Positions 1-56,691 of a DNA stretch of 64,000 nt are shown here, in pieces. Each line of letters starts with the position of its first letter. Positions within the stretch are counted from its first letter, which is position 1. Position numbers and translations under genes: made by a program. The notes below the pieces were generated by a model. The model did not search any database, was not told the DNA's origin, and saw nothing but the letters and a program-made list of their open reading frames with translations. Origin of the DNA: Blasia pusilla (taxonomy: Eukaryota); the NCBI GenBank assembly GCA_050084515.1, contig CM114271.1, positions 17,298,001 to 17,362,000 on the forward strand, in the 5' to 3' direction.

Positions 1-2
1 AG

Positions 3-960
3 GGCATTTGTGTGTTAGATCTCTTTGGTGGGATTAGCACTGGTTTGGCTGCAGTGTTGTAGGCCGGTATTCTTATGCGGAGATACGTGTATGTGGAGCG
101 AGATGAGACGGCCCACAGAGTCTCATCCCGACATATTGGTCAGTTGATGCGGAGATATCCTGAGTTGTTGCCGCCATTAGCTATTCGTGGGTACCAGCGT
201 GCTTTGCCGTCACACATTGCATTGTTGGGGGCGCAGGACCTTGAGAGGGTTGGTCTTGTGGATTTGGTGATTTCTGGATGGCCATGTCAGGGTCATACAC
301 GTGCAGGTCGTGGTGAGGGATTACACGACCCTAGGTCTCGATTTGTTTTGGGAGATGTTACGGGTGTTACGACATCTTCAGGTTCATCACACACGTGCTC
401 TAGCTTACATTCTGGAGAATGTTCCATTGTTGGATGACACTCGGACCCGGATGATGGCGAGTGTTCATAAGGTGTAGTGTTGGATTGGACCAGCAATGTT
501 TTTGGATGCAGCGCGAGTTGGCTCGCGTGCACATCATCCACGTTTGTGGTGGACAAACTTGTTGCCTAGGGAGGTTGTACGTCGAGCATATAATGCAGTG
601 CAGTGGGATCCTTGCCTTACAGTGGATAGTATCTTGGATATTGGGCGACTTTCTCAGGTGGTGAGGGTTATTGATCGATCACCCATGGCAATGGTGAACC
701 GTGTGGGCCAGCCTAGGATGACACTACCCACATTTGTGAGTTTTCCCTTGTCACATGCCTACAGGGAAGGTGGTCCCGAGCTTGTATGGGATTCTCATGT
801 GCGACAGTTGGTGGAGCCTAACGCTGATGAGAGAGAGCGTGCGATGGGATTTGCTACTGGTGTGACAACGGTTGCTTCCATTTCTGAGGCTTCACGACGT
901 CATGTGTTGGGTCAGGCCATGGACCTGAATTGTTTGACCTGGATTTTGAGTCTTGGTATG
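3..960 (+). pseudogene. C5 DNA cytosine methyltransferase domain inside the retrotransposon (stops, one frameshift ~345)
   Basis: Motif I VLDLFGGISTG (from nt 12), motif II YVE, motif IV GWPCQGH (~276-296), motif VI YILENV (ENV 415-423), motif VIII HHPRLWWTN, motif IX ERERAMGF, motif X LGQAMD, all in canonical order. Confidence 0.9.
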
Positions 961-1340
961 GCCGAGTTGCGTCGACTTCGGACTATGTCTATGGGTCTTC
1001 CACCCCTTGTGATGAGCTCGATGACTACCGGGATGGTAGAGACATCGGCTGAGGGCGAAGAGAATAGTATTTTGCATCCTTGGAGTAAATGGGATGTAAT
1101 GGATGGGCATGTGGAGTTGGTTGCTCATGCTGGTGGAGGAGTTATTTGCTCAGATGATGGTGTAGCTAAGGGTGTACCATCTTGTGAGAAGGTTGCATAG
1201 CAGCCAATGGCGTCGTCCTCTCCCTCTAGTGTGCCAGTGGAGGAGACTTGGGAGCCATTACTTGGGCCCAAGCTTACGGGAGGTGAGAAACGACGCTTGA
1301 CACAGTTCCTACGTGCTTATAGGAGTTTTTTTCCTTTAGC

Positions 1341-4300
1341 ATGAAGGAGTTGGATGCTTTGGTTGGACCCCATATACGGATTGATTTGGCTAGTGATACG
1401 CCAATCTTTCGTCGTCCCTACCGATATAGTGATATGGAGAGGGATCTGATTCAGAGTAGGACATTGGACCTTTTAGAGGCTGGATTAGTGGAGTTGTCGC
1501 ATGGAGAGTATGCATCAGCCACTGTCATGCCTGCTAAAAAGGATGTGCAAGAAACTACACGGATAGCCGGATGTGTGGAGATTACCGTCCTATCAATCGG
1601 CAGACCAAGGCCGATAGGTATGCCATGCTCATACCTGAGGATATCTTTGATGTGGTGGGACAGGCAAAGATTTTCAGTACTTTGGATCTTCGAGCAGGAT
1701 ACCATCAATTGCTGATTCGAGAGAGTGACAAGGCCAAGACAACATTTTGGGGTGTCAACTCTCATGGCAAAGATTGTTTGTACCAGTGGAAATTTGTACC
1801 CTTTGGGTTGAAGAATGCACATGCCGAGTTTTAGAGAGTGATGGACAGGATCCTAGCAGGGTTGGATTTTGTTCGGTATTACATTGATGATATCTTGGTG
1901 TTCAATAACACGGTGGAGGAGCATCAGATACATTTGCAGATTGTGTTTGAGCGGTTGAAAGCTCATGGTCTACGTTTGCATCCAGGAAAGTGTAAGTTCT
2001 TCCATGAGGATGTGGAGTACTTGGGTCATGTGATCTATCCAGGTGGTTTGGAAGTTCAGCATACAAAGGTGGAGGCTATTGCACTTATTCCTCGTCCGGT
2101 AGAAGTGAGTAGAGTTCGGGCATTCATGGGATTGCCGAACTACTATCGAAGGTATGTGAAGGGATTTAGTGCTATGGCAAAGCCTTTGCACTAATTGTTG
2201 AAATCAGATCAGGAGTGGCATTGGGGAGATGATCAGGAGAGAGCTTTTGTGGAGCTCAATGCCCAGTTGGTGGCGGCGCCTATCTTGAGGAGACATGTCA
2301 GAGGGCGCCCATTTCAGTTACACACTAATTGGAGTAGGTTGGGACTTGGAGCGGTGTTGACACAACATGATGATGAGCACATGGAGTTTGTGGTGGCCTA
2401 TGCAAGTCGTTCGAATAATGCAGCGGAGTCGCGCTATAGTTTATATGAGGGAGAGTGCTTCGCAGTAGTGTGGGCTGTTGTCGCGACCCTCATGACCAAA
2501 CAAGTGCCAAGCGGAACATCGGAACATTAGCAGACTCACGCTAAGATGGTTTGCGCGTTGGAGTTGTCTCAAAGAGGAGACAAGAGACGAGACGCGAGCG
2601 AGGAGTCGCGTTTCAGGTGTTATGGTCGCGACTGAGAAACCTGGACCAAACGCGGAATGAGACTTGAAAGAAGTCGAGTCTAGGAAGTGGGTTGCCAAAA
2701 GGAAGATCCGGATTTGGAACGCCACTAGCGTTTGAGAGTTTCCGACTGTATTTATGGCCATAACTTTTAGCACCAAGATGCGTTGGAAAGCTTATAGAGA
2801 TCCGGTCCAAACGCACCAAAGATCGCTGCAAACGCATAAGCAGCAGCCGAGATACGACCCAAAAACGACTGTGAGTGGAGTCGGGTTGAGGGCCACAGTG
2901 AAGGGCCCGACCCTCTTTTCCCAAAGGGGAGGGGTTATTGGAGAACCCCAGAAGTACTAGTAAGGGGGAAGGTCTCCGAGAGTGCTTGGAACCCAAACCC
3001 CACTTTGGGCGCCATGGGCGCTCAAGGGCATGGAACGGAACGCGAATTTGGGCGTTGGGTTGGAAAACCTGCACCAAGTCTATTGAGGCGATTTTAGACA
3101 TCCCTCTTGGATTTCACGCCGCGACTCAATTACTTGGGTCTTGGTTCGGAACTCACCCAAGGACCGTTGAACAGTTGGGATCGCTAGGCGCGCAAGTGCC
3201 GTTTCAGATCCCTGGACTAACCAGGAAGTCTGTTCCAAGTCTTGAAGGACTTGCCATGTTTTCGAAGCTAGGAACTAAGGAAGGTTGAGCTTGATGAGAC
3301 GCCGAGTTGAGGACTCGGTGGGTTGGAACGCCGGTTGGCCCAAACCCGACTAACGAGAGTGCGTGTTTGGGTGCAGATCGGCGATGAGTTCGTGACCTAC
3401 TGAACGCACGCTTCCGCAACACTAAAGAATGACGTTCAAGGAGAGTAGGGCGCGATAGCTGTGGCACACTTTAGGTGTTACTTGTTTGGCACATAGTTTA
3501 CCCTTGTTACTGATCACCAGCCGCTCAAGTGGTTGATGGAGTCTGACAAGCTTACAAGAAAGCTTGCACGGTGGGCTCTTATCTTACAGGAATATGACTT
3601 CCATGTGGTACATAGACCTGGAGTTGCCAACCTTGATGCTGATGGATTGAGTAGGAACCCATGTACTAGCCAAGAGGATGCAACTGGGGCTAGATGGCAT
3701 GGCGAGGTTGATGAGGAGATGGTGTCAGGTTGGCATGCATCTGCCTTTTTATGTTGGTTAGGGGTGGACTCTAGTATGGAAGACCATATGACATCTTACT
3801 CTAGTCAGAGGGTGGATGGCCAGCCTTTAGATCCTAAGGTTGGAGATGGTGGTACGGATCAGCGTGATATTCATGATGATGCGTTGGTGTTGGAGTTCCT
3901 ATGGACAAGTAGGATGCAAGGCATAGTGAGTGCCAAGGAGCGAGACCGTGTTCTTCAACGTGCTAAGAGATATCGATTGGAGGGAACACATATTCTCCGT
4001 GTGTGGGAGGATGGTAGAGTACGATTAGTGCCGCATTTGGCTCAGAGAGAGCGCATTGTGCGACATGCCCATGAGGAGTTGGGACATTTTGGGATAAAGC
4101 GTACGTATAGCTTACTCCTTGGCCAATATTGGTGGTGTGGCATGCATACTCAGGTGCAGCAGTTGGTGTCACATTGTATGGTTTGTGACCGGCTGAGGGC
4201 ATCATTCAATGCCCCTACACCATAGTTACACCCTTTGCCTATTATGGGGTTGGGTTACCGTTGGAGTGTGGACTTTGCGGAACCGTTACCGTTGACTCTA

Positions 4301-4960
4301 CGACATTATCCATATGTGTTGGTGATGGTGGAGCACTTCTCCAAGTGAATTGAGTTGGTGGCATTACCTGACAAGGCAAGTGACGGAACGACATATGTGT
4401 TTATTGATAGAGTGCTTAGTCATTTTGGTGCACCAGCTGAGGTGCTGACCGACCAGGGTACAGAGTTTCAGGGTGAGTTTCAGGTCTTGTGTGACAAGGC
4501 GTTGATTGATTATAACATCACGTCTCGAGATCATCCAGAGGCGGATGGTTTGGTTGAGCGTGTGGTTCACACAGTGAAGAGGGCATTGCGCAAGTATGGC
4601 CTATAGAAGGGGCATCTGGGAGACTGGGATATTCAGTTGTCATGATTAGCCGTGGGATATAGGTTCAATTGCCAAGCATCCTTGGCTTCCTTCTCACCTT
4701 ATTTGATGTTAAACGGCCGAGATCCAGACTTGCCAACAATAATTTTTCGGGAGTCTAGTGAGATGGTGAACCTTGATGACCTTGAGATATGGATGAGAGT
4801 GTGTTCTCAACGGGCAGAGTTTTTTCGGAGAGTTATGCCAACAGCCTTTGAGAATCTTGCCATTGCTCAACACAGGGATATGTTGCGGTATGCAACCATT
4901 CGGGATGGAGGTTATCGACCATCGATTTGTAGGTTCCATGTGGGGGACTATGTCTATTTG
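1341..4960 (+). pseudogene. Gypsy pol: reverse transcriptase, RNase H and integrase (interrupted by solo LTR 2479-3457)
   Basis: ORF pieces 1341-1715, 1571-1834, 1838-2194, 2195-2478, 3533-4225, 4355-4606, 4652+ join into one pol reading; removing the insertion and one TSD copy restores AVVWAVAHFRCYLFG. Confidence 0.93.
2479..3457. mobile_element. Solo LTR (979 bp) nested in the RNase H region
   Basis: Starts TGTCGCG, ends CGCGATA (decayed CGCGACA); perfect 5-bp TSD GCTGT at 2474-2478 and 3458-3462; homologous copies at 35.5-41.4 kb. Confidence 0.93.
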
Positions 4961-5164
4961 CAGCAGATTGCGCCGACAACGTTGGATGTGGCGGCAGGCC
5001 GCACTATTTTACGAGTGCGCGAGGTGTTAGCTTCTGGAGTTCTCATGTTGGTGGGTCGTGATGGAGTTGTTTGGAAGGACCACGTGCGTAATTGTGCGTC
5101 GTGTCATCTTCCAAATGTGGATAGTACTGTTGACCCACGCTTAGCCATGATACGTGCTAGCTTG

Positions 5165-5300
5165 AGGTGCATGTTGTGTGGGTCTGTTGGTAACGTAGCC
5201 CATATGTTGGTGTGTGATCGGTGTTCTAGGGGTTGGCACATGATGTGTTTGACTCCACGTATGGATGTTGTTCCTATTGGAAGGTGGGTTTGTGTACATG
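5165..5300 (+). other. PHD finger (C4-H-C3 type) at the C-terminus of the retrotransposon integrase
   Basis: CMLC-x8-LVCDRCSRGWHMMCL-x9-RWVC at the end of ORF 4652-5326; last Cys not in frame. Confidence 0.85.
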
Positions 5301-5386
5301 CACCCACGAAAGTGTATAGCATGTAGTAGATGTATAGGGCTATCTGGGAATTAGAGGGACCTAACCGCTATTTGGGGGGGGCGAGT

Positions 5387-5738
5387 TGTGGTACACTTAT
5401 GTTTGTGGATGCTCTCGTCTATGTTATGCATGTAGGTGAGTATGGTATATCAGCAATGTATGTTGTATAACGATGTGGATTCGTACGACACTTGTGAGTG
5501 TAACCCAAGTCTCTCCTTAGGAGAGTGGGTTTGGTTTGACATTGAGAAAAGACATGTCAAAATGCACACATGTGAGAGCTATGGTGTTGTGAGAGAGATT
5601 TGACCTTATTTTATTGGAGATATTTTGGTACTTCTCGCCTTTGTGTTTGGATGCCATGAGTTAGCATGCGATTGTGCGTGTTTGTGTGTGTTCGGCGACA
5701 GTAATGTATGTTGTGTACCGACGTGTATGTGCACAACA
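5387..5738 (+). repeat. 3' LTR (~352 bp) of the DNMT-Gypsy element
   Basis: Directly follows the PPT; TGTGGTACAC...GTGCACAACA imperfect terminal inverted repeat; internal direct repeat CAG(C/T)AATGTATGTTGT at ~5451 and ~5699. Confidence 0.75.
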
Positions 5739-5870
5739 AACTAGACAGCAAGAAAATATTTCACATGATACGAGAGGTGAAAAAAAGTTGAACTTATATG
5801 CAACATCAATAATCTCTTTTTTTCACTGGCTAAACACTAATTCTTCAAACACTATTTAATTTCCAAAGTG
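5739..5870 (+). repeat. 3' part of a small Helitron-like repeat family copy, interrupted by the Gypsy element
   Basis: CAGCAAGAAAAT...GCAACATCA...CTTCAAACACT closely matches the repeats at 56755-56880 and 57015-57140. Confidence 0.65.
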
Positions 5871-6544
5871 GCAAAAAGAACTTAAAAATCTGGTTCAACA
5901 TCCCATTGACGTAAGTGCATCCCATCACTAAGATCTTGTTGATACTAAAGGGGCCAGGTACTAAAATACCTTCCCCGTGACGGTATTTTCACGAGTCCGT
6001 CGCGACGTAACTAACCGCCTGAAAGTGGTATATATCTGGAAATCATGCCGACGACCAAAAGCCGACCCGGCATTGGCGGGGCCCGCGCAGACGGGCGGCT
6101 CTCAAATTGCGCGAATACTTACAGGACTGTCCTCAGCGTGCGGGTAGACTTCGACAGACATTTGTGACAGTTTGACATGTAACTTGACAATGCTCTACAG
6201 TGATGTCGCTCGTGTTTCAGGACTCGTTTTAGCAGATTGTAGACCACATTCTAATGAACGTTAATGTGTCCAAAACTCACCTACAGCCGCTGCAAACGAA
6301 AAGTTATAGGGGTTGTTGAAAGAGCCACGTGATTGTATTGTCCTCTTGACTTGGTTTGCGTGACGGATGGTCTCACGATGTTCTCAGGGATTGAGTTGCT
6401 CGTGTGTCTCTGATTGCAATTAGGTGCGAGTCCTGTGAAAATAGATTATGGTTGTAGTGGAGAAGAGCATCACAGCTTCGTCTCGCAACACAATTCGCAG
6501 GAGTGGTAGGATATACATTTTAGTGAACCTATCCTGCAGGTGTT

Positions 6545-9500
6545 ATGGCCTTCGTTGATCTGAACGATTCTCAGGCACGTCAGCGGATTGAACGAAAGCG
6601 CTTCTTGGAACGGAGAGTGGTGGAGACTCTAGCCTTGAAACCGCCAAAGCCTGGTCCGCTTTTGAAGGTATACTCCCGGATCTAAAGCAATGATATGTAA
6701 ATAATCTTGCTACCACCAGGTTACTACAATAATGATTTGTTGGAGCAGCGAAGATAACTAGCAAGCAGCACTTTGAGACATAAAATCTTCTCACCTTTGT
6801 CAAGTTAGCTCGATGTTGGTGATACGGGAGAGCACTTTACGAGTCCCACCCGGATATGTTCGACCTAGTTCAGCTGTAAAGACGCTCGATTGGCAGATCT
6901 ACGCTCCTGTCATCAGTCATCTGCGGGGATGGCCACACACCAACCGGGCTACAGATTGAACAAGATTTTAAACACGGCATTACCGCCTGCCCTAATCTTT
7001 GTTTTCCTTGCACCTTTCGTCCTACTAAAGCGTTGAAAGAAAAAATTGGAATGGAGATTCTAAAGTCGGCAAGAATATTCGATAGTCCGGAGGTTACCTT
7101 GCGCACAGGTTCTCGAAGACAGAAAATGGCGCTTCCAGCAGAAAAACCATGAGATTCCAATAGAAGCGGAAGACTTGTTAGAAAGCTCTTTCGGTTGACA
7201 TCATTAATGCACATGCTTTGGACGCAAGATGAATTTTTGAGGAGTCCATGTGAACAGCACAAATGGATTCGGTCCACGGATGGCCGGTCGAGGACACTTT
7301 CGCACATGGATGCAGGCTGTGGAAGAAATACTGGACATGAATAAAAGAACTTGGGGAACCCATCGCAAGGGGAAGGAGGGGAGACTCAGCGAAAAGAGAG
7401 AGAGAGAGAGAGAGAACAATGGAGGGAGACATAGATCCAAGAAAGAAGAGGCCTCCAGCTCTAACTCCAAAAATATTTGCAAAGCTAATGCAGGGGCAGT
7501 TTCTCGTGAAGGGAACAGCGATCAGCGAGGAAAATCCCGCCTCCGGATGGCGTAACGAAGTGATATACAGTCTGTGAAAGTAGACGTAGGTTGGTTCCCA
7601 CACGGCAACAGTTTTTAAGCCGAAAATTTTCGAGGCATCCCATCCAAGACAAAATTGGATGAAGTTCGTCCATTAATTTCATTCTAGACGTGTGCCTGAG
7701 TTCAAGTAATGAAGAGAAGGCATTGAAAGTATAAAAGGGATCGACCATCAAAGAAAGCAGAAGGGAGACTCAAGGAATCGAGCACCAACACGCCCACAAC
7801 CACAGAGTAAAGTCGGCTGAGTCCATGACAATGTGACAGAGGAATCGTATCTGTCCATGGAAGACATCCTCGAAACAGAAATGCGAACGAAACCTAAGCG
7901 AGTGTAAAACGAGGAGCAGGTGTCAGGGCGGTGACGGTCTCTTCTTAATACTGTCTCTGCTCTGCAGGAAACGGTTACCGGTGTCTTGTCAGGGTTGTCT
8001 TGTTGGGAAGAGTGTTCCACTGGTGCAGACCCGTTGACTCATTAAATTCCACAGGGAAAAGATATATGACAGTTTAGGGCAATTCGCACTAACCTGTCAT
8101 TCGTTGTAGGAAGGCGAACATGGAACTTACAAGCTTAGTCCAGATGAAGAGCAACAGGCCGTCAGTGAGTACCGAAGGAGATCTAGACAAGCGCGAATTT
8201 TGCAGGTGTCCTCATCCCAATTCCTGTTTCACCCTTTCTCACCGTGCATTCGATCAGTAACTATCTTTAAATCTAAGTTAGCCTTTGAGACGTTTTCCAG
8301 AATCCATTGCGTATTCAATTTGTTCATGTTTTTGCCCGCGCCATGCTTCGCGATCCTCTTATGCTGTGTGAGGGCTTCTCACCTTTAGACTCCATTATAA
8401 AAGATGCCACCTCCAACAGTATCGGCGTAAATTCCAACAGTATCGGCGTTTTGATTTGATTCTGCAGGTGCGGGCTCAAGAAATGTTACTTGCAGCAGAA
8501 CGAGTTGGAGAATTTCGTGAGCGCAAAAAGAGGGAGAAACAAAAACTGCTGCAAGTACTAAAGGTATCTGACTACAACACACTCTGTGAAATTCCTCACT
8601 TCTTATCTAAGTTGCATTGCTGCATACCCGAAGCACTACGCTTTTGAGGCTAGATGTCCTCCTTTGGTTTAATCGTCCCTTGTCCATGTTCACAAAGAAG
8701 AGAATCGAAACAACGAAACTTTTGTCAGCACGTCTCAAATAACGCTCCCATCGAAAACTTTTGTCCTTCCGTCGACCCTCTCAGTCATTGAGTTTCAGCT
8801 GCATTTGTCGTCACTTTAGGAATGCCCCTGGCCCTCTCTTTTTTGTCGAGTTCTTTGTTTTCTAAGATGAGACAGTAATTAATTGCCCATGAACGGAATG
8901 GGTCCCAGACATGGACCCAATGATTGTCATTTCTTGTAAATTTTGGTATGTACGGTAAGATGTTTCAAAAAACTTTCATAGCGAACAGAAAACTGAAAAT
9001 CATCTCGGTTGATTACTCTGGAGAGATATTCCTGGAGGGAGCGGGAAGTTTTAGATGATTGACATCTGATATGAAAAAAATTCTGGTAATTAAAATCGGT
9101 GAGACATTTCCGTGAAAGACTTTTCGAAGATGGAAATCTGATCCAAAGACTTTTCTAGTGAGGAAAAGCTGAGATGAAAAAATTACCAATTGGATGCTTA
9201 GGAGAAAATTTCGAAAGAGGGAACTTTGACTCGAAAACATTTGCAATTGGATATTTCCCACAGTGTAAATGTGATCTGAAACATTTTCCATTGGGTATTT
9301 TCGATAAGCTCAACAATGGAAAAATTCCCACATCTGAAATCTTTACACACATGTCAACATCCTGGAGTTTAACGTGGGAGGTTCAAACACAAACAAGAAT
9401 ATGGTCAGTTGTTCTTCTCTATTTCTCCCGCCATGAAATCCCACAAACTCTACTTGGAAAGGCTTGGAAGAGTTTATTATAAAACTTGGTGGTTCATCTC

Positions 9501-12500
9501 ATCTATTCCTTGCAAGATGATCGCACATCAGAAAGGCATCCTTGACTTCACAGTAGTTAGTTTGGTTACCTCAGCACTTCAGTAAAGGATCGTTTCGAGC
9601 TGATGTCATTCGTATAGTGGTGAGAACGATCAGGTTTTCAAACTTGACAAGATTCTAAAAACTAGAACCATATCGTTGACGTGGTTGGTCAATGAGTTGG
9701 TGAGCAAGTTTGAAACGCGTAATGCTTATGATTCTAGTCTTGTGACTAAGAGTATGTTGGAAACGCAGGAAGCATGGAAGGAAGAGCAAGGAAGACGAAT
9801 TGCTGACCTTGAAGGTGACTTTGTCCACTTTTACAAGGGCATTGGACAGAGTCACGATGCTGCTCAGACTGTGTCACAGAAACTGGTGAGTGCTTACAAA
9901 GTCTTGAAGTTGGAAGTTGATACTAGGCCGTGTCAGAAGTCCAGGAAGCTGGTGCCCACTTTGGCCTGTACATCTGCCGCTTGTCCGGATGGGAAATGGA
10001 GCTCTTTCTCAGGTCTCCATCTTTCCCTTTCTAGCTGAAAGAGAGATTCCCCGAACCCCAAGTACTCCTCATAGTGAGAATTTTGTGCTTCATCTCACTT
10101 CAGCTGGTCAGGACGTCATACAAACCTCCCACCCCATCGACTTGCGGAGTTAGTGGCTAGCCGTATCTGAGCGAAGTCAGCGACTAGTTCACCTTCGCGA
10201 GTTCAAGCCGGACAAACTCCTTTCGGGAAAACTTTGACATGCCCTATTGCACTCATCCACACAAATGAATTGAACAGTATATTATTGTTTTCTCTGTCCA
10301 TGACTTTCTCTGTGCATGTTCATTATGATTTAAGCTTTGGGACTGCAAAAAATACTTCCATCACCTTCTCTTGCTTGACCTTATCATAATGACTAGACCC
10401 TATGAAGCTGTTAGGCAACTGGCTCTCTTTGCAGGCAGAAGTGGCAGAAAAGAAGGCTAAAGAAGCTGAAGAAAGCAGAATATGGGAAAAAATGCGATTT
10501 CAGAAGGCTATGCAGGAGGTGAAGCCCTCTTTCTGCGTGCGTGCGTTTTAGACAGAAACGAAGCTTTGTAGATTTCCTTCTTCCAAACTCCAATTCCCAC
10601 CCAGAGTGATTCAAAATTAAAGGTAACCGAGATTGTGATGTCGATTTTTTCGAAGCATGCTAAGTGAGCAGCCCACATTTACGAAGGAGTTTCTGTAGAC
10701 GCTAACTGGAAAGTAGTAGAGTGGAAGACCAACTCTGAGAGATAGAAATGTAAAAAATGAAGGGGTCCGGTTTCAAGAATTTCCTATGCGTTTGCGTTGA
10801 TTTTAACACCACCAGATTCTTGCTAATTGCTTCCCCACCTGTTAATTCTCTATATCAAGTTACAAAAGGAACACTAAAGTGGTCGACAGAGGACTTCCAT
10901 CAAGGCTTTGACTTCACTATACCATATCTTTGAGGCTTCTTCTGATATCTAGCAGAAGAAAATAGAGTCAGTATCCACCCACTCTCAATTATCTTGTTCT
11001 TATGAGCTCTGGGCCACAAGGTTTTATACAACTCCACTTGTGGATACATCCATTGAAACATCATATTAGAGAAGGTGCACTAATCAATTCTGCTTGAGAT
11101 TGCACGGCATACAATCAGTAATATAGTAGGCTTGAGTCTGACCTGGCAACTTTTCCATTTTGCTTCTTGTCAAGGAAATCGCTCGGAAATCAGAGGCTGG
11201 ACACGAACAGAGTTTTGCCAAGGAGCGGAGGAAGGTTGTGAACCATGTAGCAGCTCTTGATCGACGACGCGCACGGTGCTTTCATGCTTTTCATGCAAGG
11301 TCTGAAATAAAACAAGAGAAGAAGCATACTGCAAGTGAAGGTAGCTATGTATCTGTCACTTTCTTCTATGCGTACTAGACATGTCAAATAAATAGCTGAA
11401 CTGGCCATAACATATTTTCGTGACCATGCTAACTCAAATGTACAAACACTATCTCTCCATGGAGACTCCCTCCCCCTCCTTCAACCATTGCCCCCTAGTT
11501 TGTGATCATTAATTCGCATCTCCATTTGCAGCCAAACGTGGCCTTGAGGTTCAAGGTTAACGATAAACGATTAACCCGGATCCCACATCTTAAGCAAGTC
11601 CCATGTTTGATCCGCCGCGCGTGAGAGTTGCCTACGTCCTGTTGAAATCAGAATTCTACTTCCTCACAGATCTACTTTTAAAACTTTTAAAAAGATAGAA
11701 AGATAGTAGATCCTGACAGGATCTTCCACTGAACCATGTACATGAGGGTAATCACTTACAAACCTGAAAAGAGCAAATCTGAAATGGATTGCATGTAGAA
11801 CTGATCTACAACTTCTATTGAGAACTGGGTGCTTGAAAAGCAACACCTTATTAGAATACACAAGTCCTGAAGAGAGGTGGTTGAAACCAAGATGCAGGAG
11901 TTTGTGCTAGATTGGTTCTTGGAGCATTCTCCACACCAATGCACATTCCTTCTTAGTTGATCAAGGCACCAGCAGAGGTTCCGGTATGTAGGAGCTAATC
12001 TCAAAACCCACAGTGAAGTGAATCAAAGAAGAAGGGAAGAGAGGGGGAGTTAAATAGTTTCCTACAAGAGACCAGCAGAAGGGACCACTGCATGGTAAGG
12101 CAAGGTGGAGGGGCCAGCACAACAGGAGCAGGCCAGCACATTATGAGCAGGACAGCACAACAGGCCAGCACACCATGTGCACAATTAAACATAATCAAAA
12201 CTCACAAGAGTAGTAAAAGAGGTAACTAGTAAACTAACTGAGACTTGTAACTATGATAAACTTCCAACCATAGTTTGCAGAACTAACCATAGTTAAAAAA
12301 CTGGAAGAAAACAGCAGACAATTTTATGTGATATCCTAACACGTCCCTCCCTCTCTAGCTAGGCCCCATGTTCCTCGTGCTTCATGGTCACCCACAAATT
12401 TTCATGATGACCCGGTGTCTCATGGGCCATTCTGCTTGCAGAACGTGACTTGACTCATATAACATGGGCTCACTTTAGAAGTGATTCATGGCTCTGGCAT

Positions 12501-18650: not shown

Positions 18651-18701
18651 TCCCTACGCTAATTTAGATGATCTCTAACGCTGATTTATGATCGTTGCCA
18701 G

Positions 18702-21700
18702 CAGAATTCGAGGGAGCAAATGCTGCTGCAGTAGAAATTTGTGGTGATGATGCCATGGTTGGAGCAAACCCCGATACAATATCTACCGGAGAAGCTGGTG
18801 TCTTGGATGTAGGATCAACACCACCAGCTCAGTTAGGAGACGTGAGTGAACAGGCGCAAATTGTTGAACAACCAGAAATGTCAGTTGGCGATGCTGAAGC
18901 TCATAGAGAGAGTGCTCAACAGAATGAAAGTAAAGATGAAAGTAACGATGAAAGCAACCTTATCGTTAGTGGCATGCATGATGATCAAGTTGTGTCAACT
19001 AAAGTTGCTACATCGAGGAAGCGTAGTACTATGGAAGATATGAAGTCGAGCTCTCATGCTTCACGCGTGAACATAACTGGGCTTTCTCTTAATCGACTAC
19101 ACGGTAGACTTAAGGACGAGGTTACCGGGTACTCTATCAATCCGATAAAACCCCCTGGCTGTACCCCAAGAGGTCAAAATGCATGTGGAAGTACCAAAAC
19201 GCTGAAGGACGGTAGATCGGGTTCACAAGTCCCATCCCTGCCCAACTTTAGTAGAAATAAGAGTATTAGGAAAGGAAACAAAAGTCCTCAGAAGGTTGAA
19301 AGCGTTTGTAAGCAAACATCCAAATGGCCTGATAGCCAGGAAACAGGTGAACAGAGTAACGAGTTGAGGAAAGTGCCAAAAGTTTTGGGGAAAGATCAAG
19401 CCAAGGAATCAGCAGAGAACTTGGAGACATCACTCGACAAACGGTCAGGTTTGCCAGCTTGCTTTCCACAATATGAAAGCTGTACACCAGAAGCAAGGAG
19501 GAAGTCTCCAAGAAGACCGAATGGCACTTGGCTTTCCAACATATTCGACAAGCTGACCTGGTGGAAAAGCGATGCCACTAAGAAAGACCTTCCCAGCTCG
19601 TTGGTTGCAATTATCGGAGAGCAAGCCGAAGGTGTAGGGTCTAGTTCAGGTGGAAAAAGCTGCAGAGTCGCTGCCACAGATGTTGGGAAAGAGACAATAT
19701 CCAGATTAGATCCGTTGAATCAAACCGATGGTTCCAAGTGTGAAGTGCAGCAGCTCATCAGGAAGAAAACACCGATCACATTGGGGAGCGTTGGAGAGTT
19801 CGAGACTTTGAAAGAACCTCAGCAGCGGAATGATGAACAGACGGAGCGGTTAGAAGTTTACACGACGGAAATCTTCGGAATGGAGGAGTTGGAAGCCTTA
19901 CGGTTGGAACTTTATGGTCCGCGGACAGGTACCCCAAGCCACAAAAAGGTTAGACCTGACAAAGAGAAATCCATGCCAGTCTCCAGTAAACAACGCGACA
20001 ATTCTGTGGTGTGTGTGGAGCAGTGTAATGACCCAGTACCCAAGTGTAATGACTCAGTACCCAAAGCACACTCAATTGATGGACGCAGAAATCCATCAGC
20101 CATTGCCCAAAGCAAAGAAAAAGAATTACCACAATCCGGTGCTCAGAGAGCCAGGAAAGACTCTACAACTCAATACACTTGTGGAATGTTTGAGACCGAG
20201 TGTTTTCCAGACACGAAATCTGCGAAAGGAACAGCCGAAATAACTGGAGTGAAAGGCGACGTGTGCAGCAGGGGGGCTGACAGCGAGCCTGTGGAAGTAC
20301 AGAAGAATAACGATGTTCTCGTAGAATCCAGTGGCCGTGGCCAACTTCTAGAGTTCCCAGGCAAACCACCACCAAATTCCCAAAAGCATTGTGTGTCATC
20401 CACTTTTAATTCAGTTGCGACAGTAGGGAATGAGAGCGGGGCACCAACTGAACCAATGTCAGCTCGTGAGGTGGCTGAGAAGCTTATTCGTGCTTGGAGG
20501 GCAGGGCAGCTTGGTGGAAATGTCGACACCACACTCGAGCGAGCTCGACAAAAGCTTACACCGATGTCAAGAAAGAGGAGAGCAAGAACTGATGAAGAGC
20601 CACACTTCAGTGCCAGTCTGACAGGGACGACACTCAAACTAGAACACCTCCGAGGGAAGATTAATAACAGACCATCACAGACTAACACAACAAAACTCAG
20701 AAAGTCGCGAGCGTTTGCTTCATCCCAGAGTGCTGTTTTGCAAGAGAAAAAGCAACCCAACACCAAGAGTTTATCTGAAGGCAAGGAAATTGCTAAGAAC
20801 TCAAAGACACCCTCAGAAAAGCTTCAGATTCCTAGCAAACTAACCACGCAGCATTCTCAATCCACTCGGGAAACTAAAGCATCAGAAAATAGTTGTGTTC
20901 CAGATATGAACCTGAAAGTAGAGGACATTGTTCCAGAAGCAAGATCCTTAGACTTTATCCTTGGCTCCCTCTCTGCACAAGTCAGAGAGCTGGATGAAAG
21001 GCTCCGAAATGTTACTTTTTCTTGCTCGAGAGAAACCACGGACTCTCTCGTTACTGATGCCTCTAACCTATGCGAGGAGCACAAGAGCTCTTCAGATCCT
21101 ACAGAAGCCATGTCAAACACAAAATTGGCAAGTACGTTAGGTGTTATTGGGAATAAAACACGACCAGAGTTGCAATCTTCGGGTAGCAGAGAACCCGAAA
21201 GATTGAAAACTACTCCAAGCCTTACTCCAATCGCAGAAGAGAGCGTACATAAAGGGAACGCTCATAAAGCAGTGCCATTGAATTCACCAAAAACTAGCAA
21301 ATACAAATCTAGCAGGGTAGATGGAAAATGTCCTTCTCCGCAAAAATGTCAGGAAAGAACTTTTCTCAGTGCATCCAGATCAACAGCTATTCGGGACGGC
21401 CGATCACCAACTTCTTCTTTGGGGGTTTGTTTGGAGGATATGGCTGACCTTGTGAAAGAAATGAATGGGTTACCTGCTTGTGAGAAGATACGAGCTCAAC
21501 TGGCACAGGATTCCTTGCTGGTGAGTCTTCCTAAATGGACTGAAACCGATGCCATTCAGGCCAGCAAGCAGGATGGTAATTTCTCCGAGACCGCACTCTC
21601 TACTGCCACAAAAACTACCAAAAAGTGCTTGCTGTCTCCCGTGATGATCCAATACGGCCGAGACGAGGCAGTTGATCCCTCCAGATCATATGCTGAGATG

Positions 21701-24134
21701 TGCTCTCAGAACGCTGGACCTACCATTTTGCGCAAATCGGCAACTTTGGACACAGAGAGGCTAGTTCACGATGGCAAGAATCCTGGTATACTTCATTCCT
21801 TACTTGTGATCCTCTTTTTTGAGTCGGTAGTTCATTTCGTTGTATTCTAAAGCGTGTCGGCATGAACCAATCTAACCAATCTACACAAGTCTTAATCCAT
21901 CATGAGAACAAGATGGGGATTTCACACAACATTTCAAATTGGAAATGGTTGTATTATATAGATACGTTTGTAAATCTATCCCTGTGTCAAAGGACACGGT
22001 AATGACGGTAGTTGCAGTAAAGGCCGAGATACAACATAAGGTGTGCACATCCGTCGGATGCCAAGTCAACATATGTCGGCAGAAAACTAATGCGGACGAG
22101 GCTCTGCTGTGATCCCCGTTTTAGACTCCATTTCATGTTATTATGTGGACGTGACAAAAGAGAGAGAACTTGTTGAAAAAATTCAATGGCATTACTGAAT
22201 GAGTAGAGGCGGTGACATATTATACATAGAATGGGGTGCCCTAGAACAGGACACAGCCGAAACTTGCAGAGTGGATTTTTTTCGTCTTAGATAGGGTATC
22301 TGGAGATAAATAATGAATCCCTCTCTTCGCTAATTGTGCAGGGATTGTAAACTCTTCGACAGATCTGCGTTCGAGGAGCTCTTTGTGGCAGCCTGAGCGA
22401 GCTTCGCTCTCCTCCATAAATCTAGCTGAAGCAATGAGCCTGGAAGCGAATGAGGACCAGACGCTGCTGTCTACCTCTATGGATTTCTCTCCTTGGAAAA
22501 CAGAAAACCTTCCAGATTTTTTCTCTTCTCTTGCAAGCTTGGGTAGGGGCTTGAATTCCACGAAGGAGCGTGAACCTTCTCCTGGGAATAGCGATGGTGA
22601 CTGCTCCCCAGGAATCAGACCACTCTATTGCCATATGAAGGAGGGCTCTAAATATGTCCTGAAAGGGAGCAAGCTCAAGAGAAAGTCCAAAGCGTTTGAA
22701 AAGAAGAGAGTCGGTCGAGTAAAAGGTAAGCAAAAGAAGTCTTCGCAGAAGCTCTTCAGTTCAATAGCATTACCTCCAAAGCTTCCTGTTGCAGACTCAC
22801 CCAAACTTAGCACGCTTCGAGCTCGGAACCTGTCCCCTCTGAAGTTCCGTAGTAAAGAGTTCATGTTGGCGAAGACTCCACCAACCAATTCCAATTTGAG
22901 CACTCGAAGCTTGCCAGCAGAACTCCCTCTGTCCGTTTCTATAAAAGAAGTACAAAAGTGGTTGTGTAGAGACACGGCTGGATGCCCTACTTCGGCTCCT
23001 CATGACTCTCTTTCCGGAAGAAGCACATTACCTGTAGCTCCTTGGACTCAACTTCCGGGCCCTAGGAGGCCTGAAGGCATGAAGACGGCCAGTAAGTGGG
23101 ATTCAAGTACAAGTCAGCAAGGGAAATCTCGATCATCACAGTTATCGATGAGAAGGGCAGACGGAGCCGAAAGGCAGCCGATGGATCAAGGAAAACGCCC
23201 TTTGGTGTGTACTCAAACCAACTCTTGTCTTCATTCTTGCAGCATAAAGTGTCCAGTAACGCATAAGCTACACTGAATTAGATGTCCACAAGTGCAGCTC
23301 AAAGTTACCGAGGAGCTGTCGGTTGGTGGAGGCGCGACATTCGCATCAAACACCGCAGTCCCGGGTCTCAATCTATCTGTTGGATGTAATTGATGTTCAA
23401 CAGCTGGAAGATAATCATATTCGTCAACTCCTACATCACCCAAGAGCTCTGTCTTAAGAAATGGCTTTGTTCACTGGTCTCTGAGGAAAAAACAAACCTG
23501 TTCTTGATCGAAATTAATCGGATCTCTCACCCTTGCTCTGAGATTGCCATCAATTGGGGTCTGTGGTCACAAGGCTACAAGAGTCACTAGTGAATGAGTG
23601 CAGTTTGAGGTTAACATCAAGCGGTCGATTTTGATAAGATCTTCGAGTAGAAAGGCTTGTACAGGTTGCCGTCATCTCAAGTGATCTTGGCTCTTCTCAT
23701 AGTGGACTTGGCTCTTTCCATTGGAGGTTAAAACACACCGGCCTGAGGGATTCGTAATTTTGCTGCAGAAGCAGTAGAATTTTGAGAGCTCTGTACATGC
23801 ACCAACAACAGAGGGCTCGTAAACAGTGTGGCAACTGGCTTAGCTAGCTCGCAGGCGGAAGTCTGGCAGTGACGTGAACGTAGTATTTAGAGAGTGTACT
23901 TGAACACCGTCTTGGGGTCTTTTATCTCGAGATTCTGTTTGATGCAAGGCAGATTCTTATGATGTTTTCTGAGCCCATATGTCTCAACAATTCCAAAGAA
24001 GGAAAGCACAAAGCCTACTTTTAGTTTTAGTTTTAGTTTTAGTTTTACCGTTACCAAATGTGTTTCCTTCGTATTGCAGGAATTAAAGCAAAGGCCGGCT
24101 TCTGCAGGGACTATCCCAAGGGATTTGGTGTAGT
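18702..24134 (+). CDS. Large low-complexity/disordered exons 18702-21785 and 22342-23204 plus uncertain terminal exons (e.g. ~24080-24134); probably the continuation of the CEP295-like gene
   Basis: 1051-aa Ser/Lys/Glu-rich ORF with CTAAC branch point and CCAG acceptor at 18701; phase-1 junction 21785/22342 keeps frame; phase compatible with donor after 13976; 3' exons not resolved. Confidence 0.65.
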
Positions 24135-25731: not shown

Positions 25732-28700
25732 TCAATCTTCAGGAAAATTAGCTGCAAGATCCCAATAATGACCAACACCAGCATCAGCCAGGTACTTCCT
25801 GGCAGCAGCTTCTGTCCTACATTGCTGAATTAAAAACCTGTCGAAATTGGGTTTTGCCACACTGCCCTGCCAAACCAGCACACACTTATTCACACCTCGG
25901 TCTACTTCCATTCCTTCCTCATCTTCCTGGACCGCAGTAGCCCACTTAATGCGCCGTAGCATTAATTTTGCATAGCGTTTGATGGACTTATTACCTCCCT
26001 CCACAACCACAATCGCCATGGTATCAGACATGACCACACACCCTGTCAGACGGTTCTCCTGGGCATTCATATCAACTTTGAACCTTGTCTGAGGGTGAGA
26101 CAGATCATTCACTCTGTATACAGAGACAATGGTCTCTATTGTGTTGTGGTCCTCAAATAATTTCTTCTCCTTCTTCTCACGTCGTTCTGCAGGAGTCAGC
26201 TTCCGGGCAAGGTTTCGATCAGTATGGGCTTGTTCTCTCTCTGCAGCAGCACTTCGAATCTCTTGCTCAAGCCTGGTGGGATCCTGTGTTGCTTCTGCAC
26301 CTAAAACCTTCATGAGATTACTCATTTTGACCTTGGCTTTTGGAGGCTCCAATAAGCCCTGTCTTATCATCTCTTGTCTGTCCTTCTCCTTTGCCAGCCG
26401 CCGTTGTGTTCGTAACTTCTTTTGCTCCTTCTTGGTCAATTTCAGAGGTTGAGGGGCAGGAGGTGCTGGTTCTGCAGGGGGTTCAATAGGCACTGGATGC
26501 TCGACGTAGATAGTTATTATCTCTGACCTGACCCGTAACTCCCCTTCCAGTATACCATCATAGCTCCTAGAGACCAGCAAGACAGCGTCCCTATATCACC
26601 GAGACACAACATTTGAAGTAAACAACAAAGAAAATGGGATGTCACACAGAAGTGAGGTAATGATGCACATACAAAGTTGGGAGTCATGATCATTTTCAAC
26701 ACTTGAACCCTCCCAAACTAGAAAGAAGATTTGAGGGTACTTCTGTCAGTTCCTACCTTGACCAATTGTGTGAAACGGGGACACTGGCCAAGAGCAAGCT
26801 CCAGTTATTGAGAAAGGCGCTAGAAGGCAATGAATGAACATCCTAAGATTACTGAGCAACAAACTGAAAAAACTGTGGCTTTGCCATTCCCTGCCACTAG
26901 TATAATTTTTGGGTCCATCACATTCTCATGAACTGTATTGAGTAATTCACATCACTATGACATAAAACAACCTTTTATGTTACAACCTTTTACTTAGCAA
27001 CAGGAAAGGAATTGACATCCAAGGACACGAGCACCAAGAAATCTTCATGCCTTTTGCTTCCCCAGAGTTGAAAAGACGTACCACCATTCCACATCAGGGA
27101 TAGGGTCCTTTACTTTCTCCTCTTTCATGGGAACCCTCTCTGTTACTTCAATGAGGTTTGGATTGATATCTGACTCAGCTTTTGCCTTGGCAAGCACTGC
27201 TTGCTTCATCTTCATCTCCTTGGCTTTGGCGTCCCCAAATTGACTCTGATCCAAACATACTGAAACAGTCAGATTCATCAGTTCCACTGCTAGAAAATAA
27301 TTGAGTTGTGCGTACCATGAATATGAACTCACCATGTCCAACATAATCTCATGACATACGTATGAAAGCATGATGTTCAATAAAGAGAAATGGATGTGAA
27401 GCTTTGTGGGCTGTTTCCTACCTTGAGTCTCAACATCTCAGCTTGCTTGGACCACTTTCCCTCCTCAACAAACTGGAAAGCTGACCGTTTTGCCTTGACA
27501 AGTTTTTTCTTGTCAGTGCCCATCCTTGGATCAAAAAAGGGGTTATCCACGGGATCATCTTCCAACTCTGGTCGTAATATTTTGAAAGCTTCTTTCTTTT
27601 GCTTGTTTATATTCACCTGTAGGATGTGGAACCACGTCAAAATAAAACACATTCAAGACAAAATCAGTACAAAACCTACAGCAACACTTGACCTACTGTT
27701 CTCTGCCATGATTCTGGATTGAGTCAACGAAGGCATAGGCCTACCCTCTGAATAGCAGTTGTAGATATCGCAAGCTCATTATCTACATGGCCTGGGCTTA
27801 TAAGAACAAATTTGATCCTTTGAAACATACTTTTAAAGTGCTGATGCTCGTAATTTTGGGCTTGTCCACCACATTGCCATTCTCATCGACTTCTCTACCA
27901 TGGGCATCCAATCGCAACACTGGCGCCTTCACCATCTTTGCTTGAGCTGCAGCTGCCAGCTCCTCGGCAGTTGGAGGCGTCACCATAGATAGCATGGGTA
28001 GGGGACCTTGTTGGAAACCCCAACGAGAAGCTAGTTCTTGTGCTCTCTTGACTGCTTCATAGTTTGATATGCCACCAAACTGAGGAAGTAAACCTTGTAG
28101 TCCAGGCACCATCCCGGGAAACCCAAAAGCACCCAGATTATTGGCCATGGCTCCTGGCATGATCAGACTGGGCTGTGTTGGTGTAACTGGTACTTGAGGC
28201 AGACGTGTCTGCGATTGAGTAGACCCTGACTGTGGTGCTGAAACAGTTGGAGTAGAGCTGACCTTGGCCGCCGCTTTTATCTAGCATGACGGTAATGGAA
28301 GATGAGTCTGCGATCGAAGAACACAAACATAGAATATTGAAGCCTTGACTAGACTTGGATCCATGTCACTCTGCTAGCTGAACTTCACAACTATTAAGAT
28401 AAACGTGAACTTGGTGTATATTGAAGACAAGTAAGCAAGATGCATTGGACAACATACCGGCAACTTTTTTAACTTCTCATTGAGCTCCTTTTGGTGTTGC
28501 AGAAGTCTTTGTGCTTTGGCCAGGACATTCTCTGCACCACCGACACTACTAGACCGTTTCTGAGAAACCCCATCTTGTGGCGAATCAAATCTGGAAATGT
28601 GACCAGAACCTTGAACCTTTTCAGTTGCACTAGAACCATGTGGAGATGGGGATGCAGTGGTGGTAGAAGGTGTGATATCTTCAGCGGCATCCTGCATTCC

Positions 28701-35534: not shown

Positions 35535-36290
35535 TACTGCGACCCTCGTAACCAAATAAACACCAAACACACGTCAAGGGAAACATCAGAACTTTAGTGT
35601 GTTCATGCTTTGATGATTTCGCTTTGGAAAGGTCTCTTCAAAAAGTCCAAGAGACGAAATGCACAAGAGAGTTTGTGCATTTCATGCATTTATGGTCGCA
35701 ACTAAGAATCCTTGACCAAATGTGAACCAAGACTTGAGATAAGTTGAGTCTAGGAAGGTTGGTTGCCAAAGAGGTGAGAACCACTTTTGCAGCACGACTA
35801 GCGTTTGGGGATTTTTACTGTGTTTTGGACCATAATTTTTAGTCTCAAGATGAGTTTGGGACAAGTAAGGTGGCTTCGGAATCTTATGCCAAGACGATTA
35901 CAACACCAAAGATTAGAGAAAATGCTTAAGCAAAGCTTGAGATATTGGCCAAAAATGATTGTAAGAGGAGTCGGGTTGAGGGCCAAATTGAGGGGCCCGA
36001 CTGTCTTTCCCTAAAGTTAGGGGAAGGGCGGGGATCCCCATAAGTACTAGTAAGGGGGAATGTCTCTAAGGATTCTTGGAACACGAACCCCTTTTTGAGC
36101 GCCAAACGACGTCTCAAGGACACGGGATGGAACGGGAGTTTGGCGTTGAGGAAATCGAAACCCAAATCTGATCCAAGGGAGTGGATTTTGTAAGTCACAC
36201 TTGGATTCCAACTCGTGACTCGCGGTTAGAGACTCATTGGATGTCCATCGGACAGTTGGAACTGCCAGGCATGCAAACGTCGTTTGAAGA
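35535..36290. mobile_element. Truncated LTR, same family as 2479-3457
   Basis: Shared blocks GCGACCCTC, GAGTCTAGGAAG..GGTTGCCAAA, GGAGTCGGGTTGAGGGCC, AAGTACTAGTAAGGGGGAA. Confidence 0.85.
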
Positions 36291-40697: not shown

Positions 40698-41366
40698 TGT
40701 CGTGCGCCTACTCTCCTTGAATGTTAATCTTTGTTGTTGAGGAAGCGTGCATTCAGTGGGACACTCTCAACGCTAATATGCATCTAAACACGCACTAATA
40801 TTACTCGGTTCTGGATCAATTAGCCATTCAACTTGTCGAGCTCTCAACTCGGCCTCTCATCAAGCTCAACCTTCCTAGTTTCTCGGTTTACAACACAGGC
40901 AAGTCTCAAAAGACCTGGCATAGACTTTCTGGTTGGTTCACGAACCTCAAACAACTTTTTTTGCGTGGCGCTTCCAATTGTCCAATGGACATCCAACGAG
41001 TCCCTAACCGAGACTCACACAAAATGAATCACGGGTGGGAATCCAAGAGTGGCTTACGAAATCGACTCCCTTAGATCAGGTTTGGGTTTCGAGTTCTAGC
41101 GCCAAACTCTTGTTCCATCCTATGCCCTTGAGATGCCGTTTAGTGCTCAAAGTGGGGTTCGTGTTCCGAGACTCCTTGGAGAGACTCCTCCTTACTAGTA
41201 CTTCTGGGGATCAGGGGGGTTCCCCTAACTTTAGGGAAAGACAATTGTGCCCCTCACATTGGCCCTCAACATGATTGCTCTCATAGTTGTTTTCGGCCAA
41301 TATCTTAGTCTATAATTATGCGTTTGCTCAAATCTTTGGTGCGTTGGAAGCGTCTCAAGATAAGAT
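40698..41366. mobile_element. LTR of the same family in opposite orientation, truncating the Copia RNase H
   Basis: TGTCGTGCGCCTACTCTCCTTGAA is the reverse complement of the family terminus. Confidence 0.85.
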
Positions 41367-41412
41367 TTAATTATTCATTCACTACTCCTTGAAAAAAAAA
41401 CAGATTTACTTG

Positions 41413-56547: not shown

Positions 56548-56691
56548 GGCTTAGAACAAGGAAATTTGAGGCAGTAGAACCTACATTTGCCATGGTTTGC
56601 TATGGGATACTTGAGAATGGGTACGAATCTTTCCATGTGGCTCGAAGATCAAAGCAGGTCAAAGTTCAAGAGTTTTTAAAAATATAGGAAA

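Follow-up and report, generated by a model that had tools for sequence, protein, structure and literature searches.

The element considered here, a decayed retrotransposon of the Ty3/gypsy type, lies at positions 1 to about 5490 of a 64,000-nucleotide stretch of Blasia pusilla DNA (contig CM114271.1; this whole stretch is called the window below), and our subject is the PHD finger that forms the end of its integrase. In an earlier note on the window it was claimed that the open reading frame (ORF) for the C-terminal part of the integrase ends in a PHD pattern, and this is borne out: ORF 4646-5326 (+ strand; 226 residues, terminating in CMLCGSVGNVAHMLVCDRCSRGWHMMCLTPRMDVVPIGRWVCVHAPTKVYSM and a stop codon) matches Pfam family PF00628 (PHD) at 31.9 bits (gathering cut-off 24; E value 1.3e-7), and the match spans residues 175-217 of the ORF and positions 1-45 of the 47 in the profile. 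As the ORF pieces upstream have Pfam matches to reverse transcriptase (RT), RNase H, the integrase zinc-binding domain and the catalytic-core family rve, the finger can be placed at the C-terminus of the integrase, and comparison with related sequences shows it to be the native extreme C-terminus. The interval 5090-5326, to which the earlier note assigned the finger, does contain it, but position 5090 still belongs to the integrase C-terminal domain, where it falls in the conserved NCxxCHLP motif; the finger itself begins only at 5168, and the end of the interval is not native.

Seven of the eight zinc ligands of a C4HC3 finger remain in the window copy (C175, C178, C190, C193, H198, C201 and C216), the last Cys being gone. 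A one-base frameshift was suspected from the translation as the cause of this loss, but was ruled out by DNA alignment with six relatives (L032, L030, L012, L052, L054 and L005), in which a 98-bp deletion lies immediately 3' of the C216 codon (5291-5293). The deletion removed '...PRCTLEG' and the native stop, together with about 74 nt of 3' untranslated sequence, and because it joined former untranslated sequence to the finger, bases 5294-5326 are non-native. Since the last zinc ligand is lost and the element is dead, nothing in the window copy is functional today, and no second copy of the integrase-PHD region was found within the window by tblastn. The polypurine tract that the earlier note placed downstream of the finger corresponds to a run of eight G residues that abuts terminal repeat B, and at least six G residues precede B in 5/5 related loci.

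Remains of a methyltransferase-carrying gypsy element

Domain matches and alignments with relatives show that an old and inactive retrotransposon, cut at its 5' end, occupies the sequence from position 1 to about 5490. It is of the kind that carries a DNA methyltransferase (DNMT), and belongs to the type described under the name KnitGypsy-Dnmt3 (de Mendoza et al., 2018; PMC5890265). The order of its parts is protease (PR)-DNMT, an in-frame stop, and then RT-RNaseH-integrase-PHD; the Ty3/gypsy order of pol (PR-RT-RNaseH-integrase, with an integrase of the DDE type) was found by Pfam in the ORFs of the window and of a near-intact relative, L035. The start of the window cuts the element inside the DNMT, and several frame changes and internal stops follow downstream (Table 1). 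In the DNMT remnant, which has a weak Pfam DNA_methylase match over the stretch containing the PCQ motif, there is a frame change (63-437 vs 271-477) and an internal stop at 475-477. RVT_1 is matched by ORF 1538-1834 (E 3.5e-7) and ORF 1835-2194 (E 3.1e-14), and tblastn places RT at 1553-2218. The RNase H coding region is interrupted by a foreign repeat of about 0.95 kb, of which copies of 69-70% identity occur on the minus strand at 35562-36148, 38121-39015 and 40707-41368 (blastn within the window); its ORF 2902-3288 has no Pfam match. RNase H picks up again near 3452, behind the repeat (RT_RNaseH profile positions 73-105), and is followed by an integrase (tblastn 4013-4567) in which Integrase_H2C2 is matched with an E value of 2.3e-15, the reading is broken between 4225 and 4349, and rve, in this decayed copy, reaches only E 2.9e-4, under its Pfam cut-off. 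The SH3-like barrel of the C-terminal region corresponds to residues 102-152 of the AlphaFold model made for L032, the intact relative closest to the window copy, where the predicted local distance difference test score (pLDDT) is about 90; in one relative the same region matches Pfam MLVIN_C (E 9.7e-6).

Table 1. Features of the element and of its surroundings in the window
Feature	Position	Strand	Basis
C5 DNA methyltransferase remnant (DNMT3-like), cut by window start	1..1197	+	tblastn with DNMT regions of relatives maps 3-954
In-frame TAG closing the PR-DNMT frame; RT frame goes on behind	1198..1200	+	context TAG CAG CCA ATG
Reverse transcriptase, three ORF pieces (one frame change, one internal stop)	1323..2194	+	Pfam RVT_1, tblastn
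RNase H, N-terminal part	2195..2494	+	Pfam RT_RNaseH_2 E 1.5e-23 on ORF 2195-2530
Foreign repeat, about 0.95 kb, inside RNase H coding region (borders approximate)	2495..3457		blastn copies in window
RNase H end, integrase zinc-binding domain (about 4040-4198) and catalytic core (4349-4606)	3458..4606	+	Pfam, tblastn
Integrase C-terminal region: helical linker and SH3-like beta-barrel, NCxxCHLP at end	4646..5167	+	full-length alignment with relatives
PHD finger, 7/8 zinc ligands	5168..5293	+	PF00628; ligand columns invariant in alignments A1 and A5
Non-native tail VHAPTKVYSM and stop	5294..5326	+	former 3' untranslated sequence; DNA alignment with six relatives
8-G run, polypurine-tract-like, directly 5' of repeat B	5374..5381	+	same type of G run in L032, L052, L065, L071, L072
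Terminal repeat B, sole repeat remaining	5384..5490	+	77-79% identity to B1/B2 of L032
1052-aa host-gene-like ORF	18692-21850	+	no Pfam match
PRP3 splicing-factor exon	25735-26595	minus	Pfam PRP3 3.4e-47, Prp3_C 1.3e-44
170-aa host-gene-like ORF	42768-43277	minus	sub-threshold PHD-variant match

Five full elements among the relatives (L032, L052, L065, L071 and L072; that of L032 runs from 2202 to 11405) carry split direct repeats in the order A...B-A-B, so that a DIRS-like repeat layout is combined with gypsy domains. Two identical long terminal repeats (LTRs) were found neither in these relatives, which have A...B-A-B, nor in the window, which retains only a part of the layout, a single B: no match to repeat A was found at 5384-5490, and similarity to the relatives stops at about 5490. 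The single B is what unequal recombination between B1 and B2 would leave. By eye, 3/5 of the full elements have TG...CA ends and a 4-bp target duplication (CATA, AATC and ATGT), marks that fit insertion by a DDE integrase.

Elsewhere in the window there are two tandem units of about 190 nt, 260 nt apart and 82% identical, at 56691-57140. Sequence of 77% identity to these units also occurs at 5746-5864, a 120-nt stretch just 3' of the element.

Conservation and class of the finger

Relatives of the element were taken from protein databases and metagenome contigs, the protein sets being gathered by similarity to the integrase-PHD region with related clusters included. The closest named proteins are from Marchantia polymorpha (78-80% identity), with others from Calypogeia fissa and Klebsormidium nitens, and PF00628 is present in 17/21 matches of the search that gave these. 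A HMMER search over 1.84 billion cluster representatives gave 2727 matches at E values of 0.001 or less (233 at 1e-30 or less), and nearly all of the best 150 extend to about residue 217 of the query, and so include the finger. When the K. nitens integrase was used as query, PF00628 was found in all but nine of the 120 proteins listed, the named sources including Haematococcus, Tetrabaena, Pleodorina and Volvox. Of 51 relatives scanned with Pfam, 47 have PF00628, with scores of 27.6-49.5 bits. Among 284 proteins gathered, 280 match the integrase C-terminal region of the window and 251 of these matches reach the finger; the full C4HC3 pattern is present in 242 of the 251. In alignment A5 (29 sequences with a mean column identity of 25%) all eight ligand columns are among the 11 that are invariant.

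Metagenome contigs scanned with alignment A2, of closer relatives, yielded 80 loci (L001-L080). The finger region lies wholly inside 72 of them, and is complete and free of stops in 31, being decayed in the other 41 like the rest of the element; this shows decay after insertion, and is no argument against function in active copies. Many stops, and changes of Cys to Tyr, Trp to stop, Gln to stop and Arg to Trp or Lys, were seen by eye (and left uncounted) in the integrase-PHD region of these loci; they resemble the C-to-T and G-to-A transitions expected of methylated repeats. The earlier note had made its proposal depend on the presence of an in-frame PHD in intact copies, and both of those that bear on this do carry the finger: P0016 is a single ORF of 1516 aa with the order DNMT-RT-RNaseH-integrase-PHD, and L035, interrupted by just a single stop over 7.2 kb, has kept its finger intact. 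Judged from these sequences, the finger has long belonged to the integrase and been under selection there, in chlorophytes as well as in liverworts and Klebsormidium-like algae, and it decays only after copies die.

To which class does the finger belong? With a family profile as query, 125 distinct PDB sequences were matched, of which the best 60 were considered. They comprise fingers of KMT2C/D, CHD4, PHF12, DPF2/3, KDM5 PHD1 (lid, 5A, 5B and 5D), ATXR5, WSTF, KAT6A/B, BAZ2A/B, PHF21A (BHC80), ORC1b, UHRF1/2, AIRE, EHD3, PHF10, RCO1 and Cph2, and there are none of the ING, BPTF or TAF3 types, which are readers of H3K4me3. In the AlphaFold model of L032 (81% identical to the window copy; mean pLDDT 78.1) the finger, at residues 171-223, has pLDDT values of 87-94 and a two-zinc cross-braced fold, with root mean square deviations (rmsd) of 0.6-1.3 Å to DPF3, DPF2, BAZ2A/B and BHC80. 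The individual Foldseek values are 0.6 Å for DPF3 (over 49 columns, with 39% identity), 0.6 Å for DPF2, 1.1 Å for BHC80, 1.1 Å for ATXR5-H3 and 1.3 Å for a BAZ2A structure described as 'in complex with unmodified H3K4 histone peptide'. Neighbours of the DPF3, BAZ2A and BHC80 type bind the unmodified N-terminus of H3. The family motif C-D-x-C-x-x-G-[WY]-H has no tryptophan two residues ahead of the His, the residue with which fingers of the BPTF and ING types build their cage for H3K4me3; retained is the loop P-x-G-x-W-x-C-x-x-C (P210 invariant, W214 in at least 90%), which holds the H3 N-terminus in such fingers. Thus, by sequence and predicted fold, the finger is nearest to readers of the unmodified H3 tail (BAZ2A, BHC80, DPF3 and KDM5 PHD1).

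In streptophyte-type subfamilies the polyprotein ends no more than about 10 residues past the finger. Several chlorophyte-type proteins (P0114, P0021, P0028, P0112 and others) were seen to continue for some 300-400 further residues, in which an AlphaFold model contains a Tudor/PWWP-like barrel (rmsd 2.6 Å and TM score 0.8 to the PHF1 Tudor domain) and a Rossmann methyltransferase-like domain (COMT, METTL21A, TrmN and METTL5, at TM scores of about 0.25-0.43). Pfam matches to the extension are below threshold (MethyltransfD12, or Dam, 18.3 bits against 22; a Tudor family at E 0.001-0.007), and its profile gave only PHD matches among the best 60 PDB sequences listed. The model suggests that the extension may be a second methyltransferase on an element that already carries a DNMT. 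When barrel and finger were compared together with the Tudor-PHD cassettes of PHF1, MTF2 and UHRF1/2, the Foldseek rmsd was 12-14 Å.

The finger, the methyltransferase and chromatin

The DNMT remnant in the window is a DNMT3-related C5 methyltransferase beside pol, homologous to K. nitens P0022, and for the DNMT of L035 the top 29 PDB matches are all DNMT3A, 3B or 3C. The earlier note had proposed that co-occurrence of PHD and DNMT be looked for across the family. A jackhmmer profile made from the DNMT of P0016 detected DNMT in 134 of the 284 proteins, and where enough upstream sequence is present the outcome is strongly positive: of proteins in which 1000 residues or more precede the integrase C-terminal region, 93/99 have the DNMT (72/75 where 1300 or more do), as have 24/27 loci in which the RT of the element is preceded by 1800 bp or more. 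With at least 700 residues the figure is 108/139, the shortfall between 700 and 1000 being largely due to ORF2-only proteins (P0006-P0015), which start just behind the boundary between DNMT and RT; the three RT-bearing loci without DNMT upstream (L004, L013 and L026) may be cut short at the 5' end or may really lack a DNMT. The association needs no explanation beyond common descent.

Two architectures can be distinguished. In one, represented by 10 proteins and the window, DNMT lies 5' of RT; in the other, the chlorophyte type (124 proteins, with a median of 305 residues past the finger), it lies between RNase H and integrase. The near-intact L035, in which Pfam recognizes Asp_protease (weakly), RVT_1, RT_RNaseH, Integrase_H2C2 and rve, has an ORF1 (976-5085) for aspartyl protease and DNMT and an ORF2 (5086-8229) for RT-RNaseH-integrase-PHD, in the same frame and separated by its lone stop, TAG at 5083-5085 in the context TAG CAG TTA. 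A stop stands at this alignment column in 12/12 copies of the window subfamily (nine TAG and three TAA; alignment A3) and a conserved ATG follows two codons past it (subfamily consensus TAG CAA CCC ATG), so that in this subfamily DNMT and integrase-PHD are products of different reading frames; in P0016 and K. nitens P0022 the reading continues from DNMT to RT without a stop. The conserved stop suggests programmed readthrough or re-initiation, with DNMT made along with Gag-PR in excess over RT and integrase. A tobamovirus-like readthrough context, TAG-CAR-YYA, was considered at the boundary and is not established, as it is exact in just 2/25 intervals (those of the window and L035; the background is 27 occurrences in 814,194 bases) and the consensus is TAG CAA CCC, the stop itself being what is conserved. 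When tblastn was applied over the ORF1/ORF2 junction of L035, the linker was too variable to be aligned between subfamilies.

Some relatives are internal-deletion derivatives, from which RT, RNase H and most of the integrase are gone, and in which PR-DNMT and the integrase C-terminus with its PHD are retained. They include L002 and L003 (with shared breakpoints), L005 (with other breakpoints) and P0003, which is the annotated Marchantia gene Mp_7g09570. Every DNA copy seen of these derivatives is decayed, none of its ORFs being longer than 233 aa.

What might the finger do in active copies? It may bind the N-terminal tail of H3, probably unmethylated at K4, and would thereby tether the complex of integrase and cDNA to nucleosomes of a particular chromatin state, steering insertions away from H3K4-methylated promoters much as the chromodomain does in chromoviruses; the DNMT3-like enzyme would be a separate product of the upstream frame, acting independently of the finger. 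By analogy with chromodomains, a bias of insertion through H3-tail tethering is the reading that we somewhat favour. Several things weigh against it. The family counts are not independent samples, because of the way in which the sets were gathered; the finger is intact in just 31 of the 72 genomic copies that span it, although this reflects decay after insertion; and the surroundings of the element in the window are no obvious gene desert, a PRP3 exon lying about 20 kb off. Moreover, the first loop of the finger in the window subfamily (GSKGGAAH) is without the acidic residues that several H3K4me0 readers use there and that another subfamily possesses (QRTDDADQ), so specificity may differ between subfamilies or be something else, the class of ligand being predicted from nearest neighbours. 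The lack of acidic residues there would also suit a functional finger with a ligand other than a histone (a host protein, a nucleic acid or another integrase subunit, in nuclear import, multimerization or tethering to a non-histone factor): conservation indicates function and says nothing of the ligand, and the poor superposition on Tudor-PHD cassettes makes domain packing uninformative. We nevertheless regard a non-histone ligand as unlikely, since all of the close solved neighbours listed are chromatin proteins, several of them solved with H3 tail peptides, and the loop that holds the H3 N-terminus is retained. That the pattern is a chance arrangement of Cys and His residues, or a relic confined to the window copy, might be suggested by the decay of that copy and its lack of the eighth ligand, but is scarcely credible in view of a Pfam match over the curated cut-off, and is refuted at the level of the family by complete fingers in hundreds of relatives over distant green lineages.

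A closer relation between reader and writer was proposed in the earlier note, namely that the element could couple histone-guided integration with de novo methylation. On this view the finger would sense H3K4me0 and direct or license the element's own DNMT3-like enzyme, as the ADD domain does in DNMT3, so that integration and methylation would become a single act guided by histones. The two domains do co-occur in most proteins and loci in which both could be seen, the DNMT is nearest to DNMT3A/B/C among solved structures, and the finger resembles H3K4me0 readers; in the chlorophyte type DNMT comes right before integrase, making a DNMT-integrase-PHD product conceivable, and the internal-deletion derivatives also bring DNMT near to the integrase C-terminus and its PHD. 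However, common descent alone accounts for the co-occurrence, PHD is found without detectable DNMT in P0023, P0173, P0237, P0247 and P0250, and the derivatives seen are those decayed copies with short ORFs described above. In the window subfamily, furthermore, the domains are about 1000 residues apart, with RT-RNaseH-integrase in between, and the stop in 12/12 copies splits them into separate products, with a protease upstream. We therefore think such coupling quite improbable, and in the window subfamily a direct, DNMT3-like coupling lacks support. Of the idea that the element mimics DNMT3 logic, the likely ligand fits the analogy with ADD, but DNMT and PHD do not form one allosteric unit.

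A looser association between the two can be imagined, though we offer it tentatively and with considerable doubt. PHD-integrase and DNMT3-like enzyme would form an old, co-inherited 'chromatin kit' of one clade spanning chlorophytes and streptophytes, in which the integrase would pick K4-unmethylated, silent chromatin and the abundant ORF1 product (Gag-PR-DNMT) would methylate the new copy or its surroundings, so creating its own safe harbour; chlorophyte integrases would have added a Tudor-like reader and a second methyltransferase fold. If so, the chlorophyte type would be the most 'epigenetically armed' integrase described. In sum, the earlier note's observation is confirmed and its interpretation partly supported, in that position and co-occurrence hold, the coupling being a proposal.

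Relation to known elements and chromatin readers

Integration guided by a chromodomain is the textbook example of how a retrotransposon reads histone marks. If the finger, a second and unrelated reader at the same place on the integrase, does act as proposed, chromatin-guided integration would have evolved more than once; hundreds of members have kept the reader, the family carries a writer of DNA methylation as well, and Marchantia and Klebsormidium, with their methylome and histone maps, would provide a tractable system for learning how transposable elements exploit host chromatin. The value of the finding is limited by the fact that each of the component ideas has already been described, that the window copy is dead, and that histone binding and targeting are only predicted, from sequences and models.

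KnitGypsy-Dnmt3 of K. nitens was described as having a gypsy-type pol, a DNMT3-related methyltransferase upstream of RT, and repeats in the order A...B-A-B, 'the same as that of a DIRS retrotransposon' (de Mendoza et al., 2018; PMC5890265, legend to Fig. 4). The relatives of the window element share this repeat layout, as well as the position of DNMT upstream of RT, and the DNMT3-like assignment agrees with that account; indeed K. nitens P0022 (KFL_009030040) is directly homologous to the integrase and DNMT of the window. The differences are that P0022 reads from DNMT through to RT, where the window subfamily has its conserved stop, that two K. nitens protein models are partial and stop short of the finger, and that the host here is liverwort-like. 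P0186, the nearest relative of the K. nitens integrase (79% identity), carries the finger. The word PHD is absent from the main text and one supplementary text file of PMC5890265, the figures lying outside this search, and in the literature searched (subscription journals and figures again being outside it) we found no account of a DNMT-carrying element whose integrase bears a PHD, and none of the window family in Marchantia.

In chromoviruses, as in the present family, a domain of the histone-reader type follows the C-terminal (GPY/F, SH3-like) module of the integrase, and the chromodomain is presumed to guide integration by chromatin state (PMC6673714; preprint 10.64898/2026.05.21.726589). 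The claim of the earlier note that PHD takes the usual position of the chromodomain was well founded: the finger stands behind the SH3-like C-terminal domain of the integrase, and the Pfam Chromo family has no match in the window ORF or in any of the 51 relatives at E values of 1e-5 or less. The family differs from chromoviruses, then, in having a PHD and no chromodomain, with a predicted ligand that is the unmodified H3 N-terminus rather than H3K9me.

PHD fingers are not in themselves new to retrotransposons. Many retrotransposons are stated to encode them and they are widespread (PMC6673714), PHD is a common accessory domain of transposable elements in Chlamydomonas and other green algae (PMC8557442; PMC9940879), and the figure legend for Gypsy-7a_cRei places PHD beside the integrase (PMC9940879). 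REM1 is described in a passage of another paper as a chromovirus in which nothing of the integrase is left but the GPY/F module and chromodomain, PHD being unmentioned there (PMC2774666). Gypsy-7a_cRei, REM1, CR1 long interspersed elements (LINEs) and Chlamys Penelope-like elements (PLEs), compared here by description only, have in common with our family the PHD, and differ from it in that the descriptions consulted report no DNMT; the Tetrabaena, Pleodorina and Volvox matches to the window family come from relatives of the hosts of the Chlamydomonas PHD elements.

A chromatin reader and DNA methyltransferases are also combined in one LTR retrotransposon in EpiLTRs, which are described as having chromodomain, DAM and DNMT in one element (preprint 10.64898/2026.05.21.726589; 'streptophytes (Gypsy-DNMT3)' are mentioned there too). 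The likeness extends to the Tudor-like barrel and second Rossmann methyltransferase-like domain that the chlorophyte relatives of the window family carry past the PHD. The reader of EpiLTRs is, however, a chromodomain, and their DNMT is given as sister to DNMT4 and placed at the 3' end of pol, whereas in the window family it is DNMT3-like and lies upstream of RT or of integrase.

Among cellular proteins, comparison is invited with the ADD domain of DNMT3A, 3B and 3L and with the PHD fingers of BAZ2A/B, BHC80/PHF21A, KDM5 (PHD1), DPF3 and AIRE, to which the finger is nearest. The ligand of ADD is unmethylated H3K4, which is likely to be that of the finger too. The finger differs from ADD in being a plain single PHD, not a GATA-like finger plus PHD, and in being fused to integrase and not to a methyltransferase; no chain containing ADD was among the PDB-profile and Foldseek matches listed. 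A gypsy family with a DNMT, retrotransposons with PHD fingers, and LTR elements that combine reader and writer have all been published already. Added here are a PHD reader at the end of the integrase in the known DNMT-gypsy lineage, members of that lineage from liverworts, and a conserved boundary between the ORFs of writer and reader.

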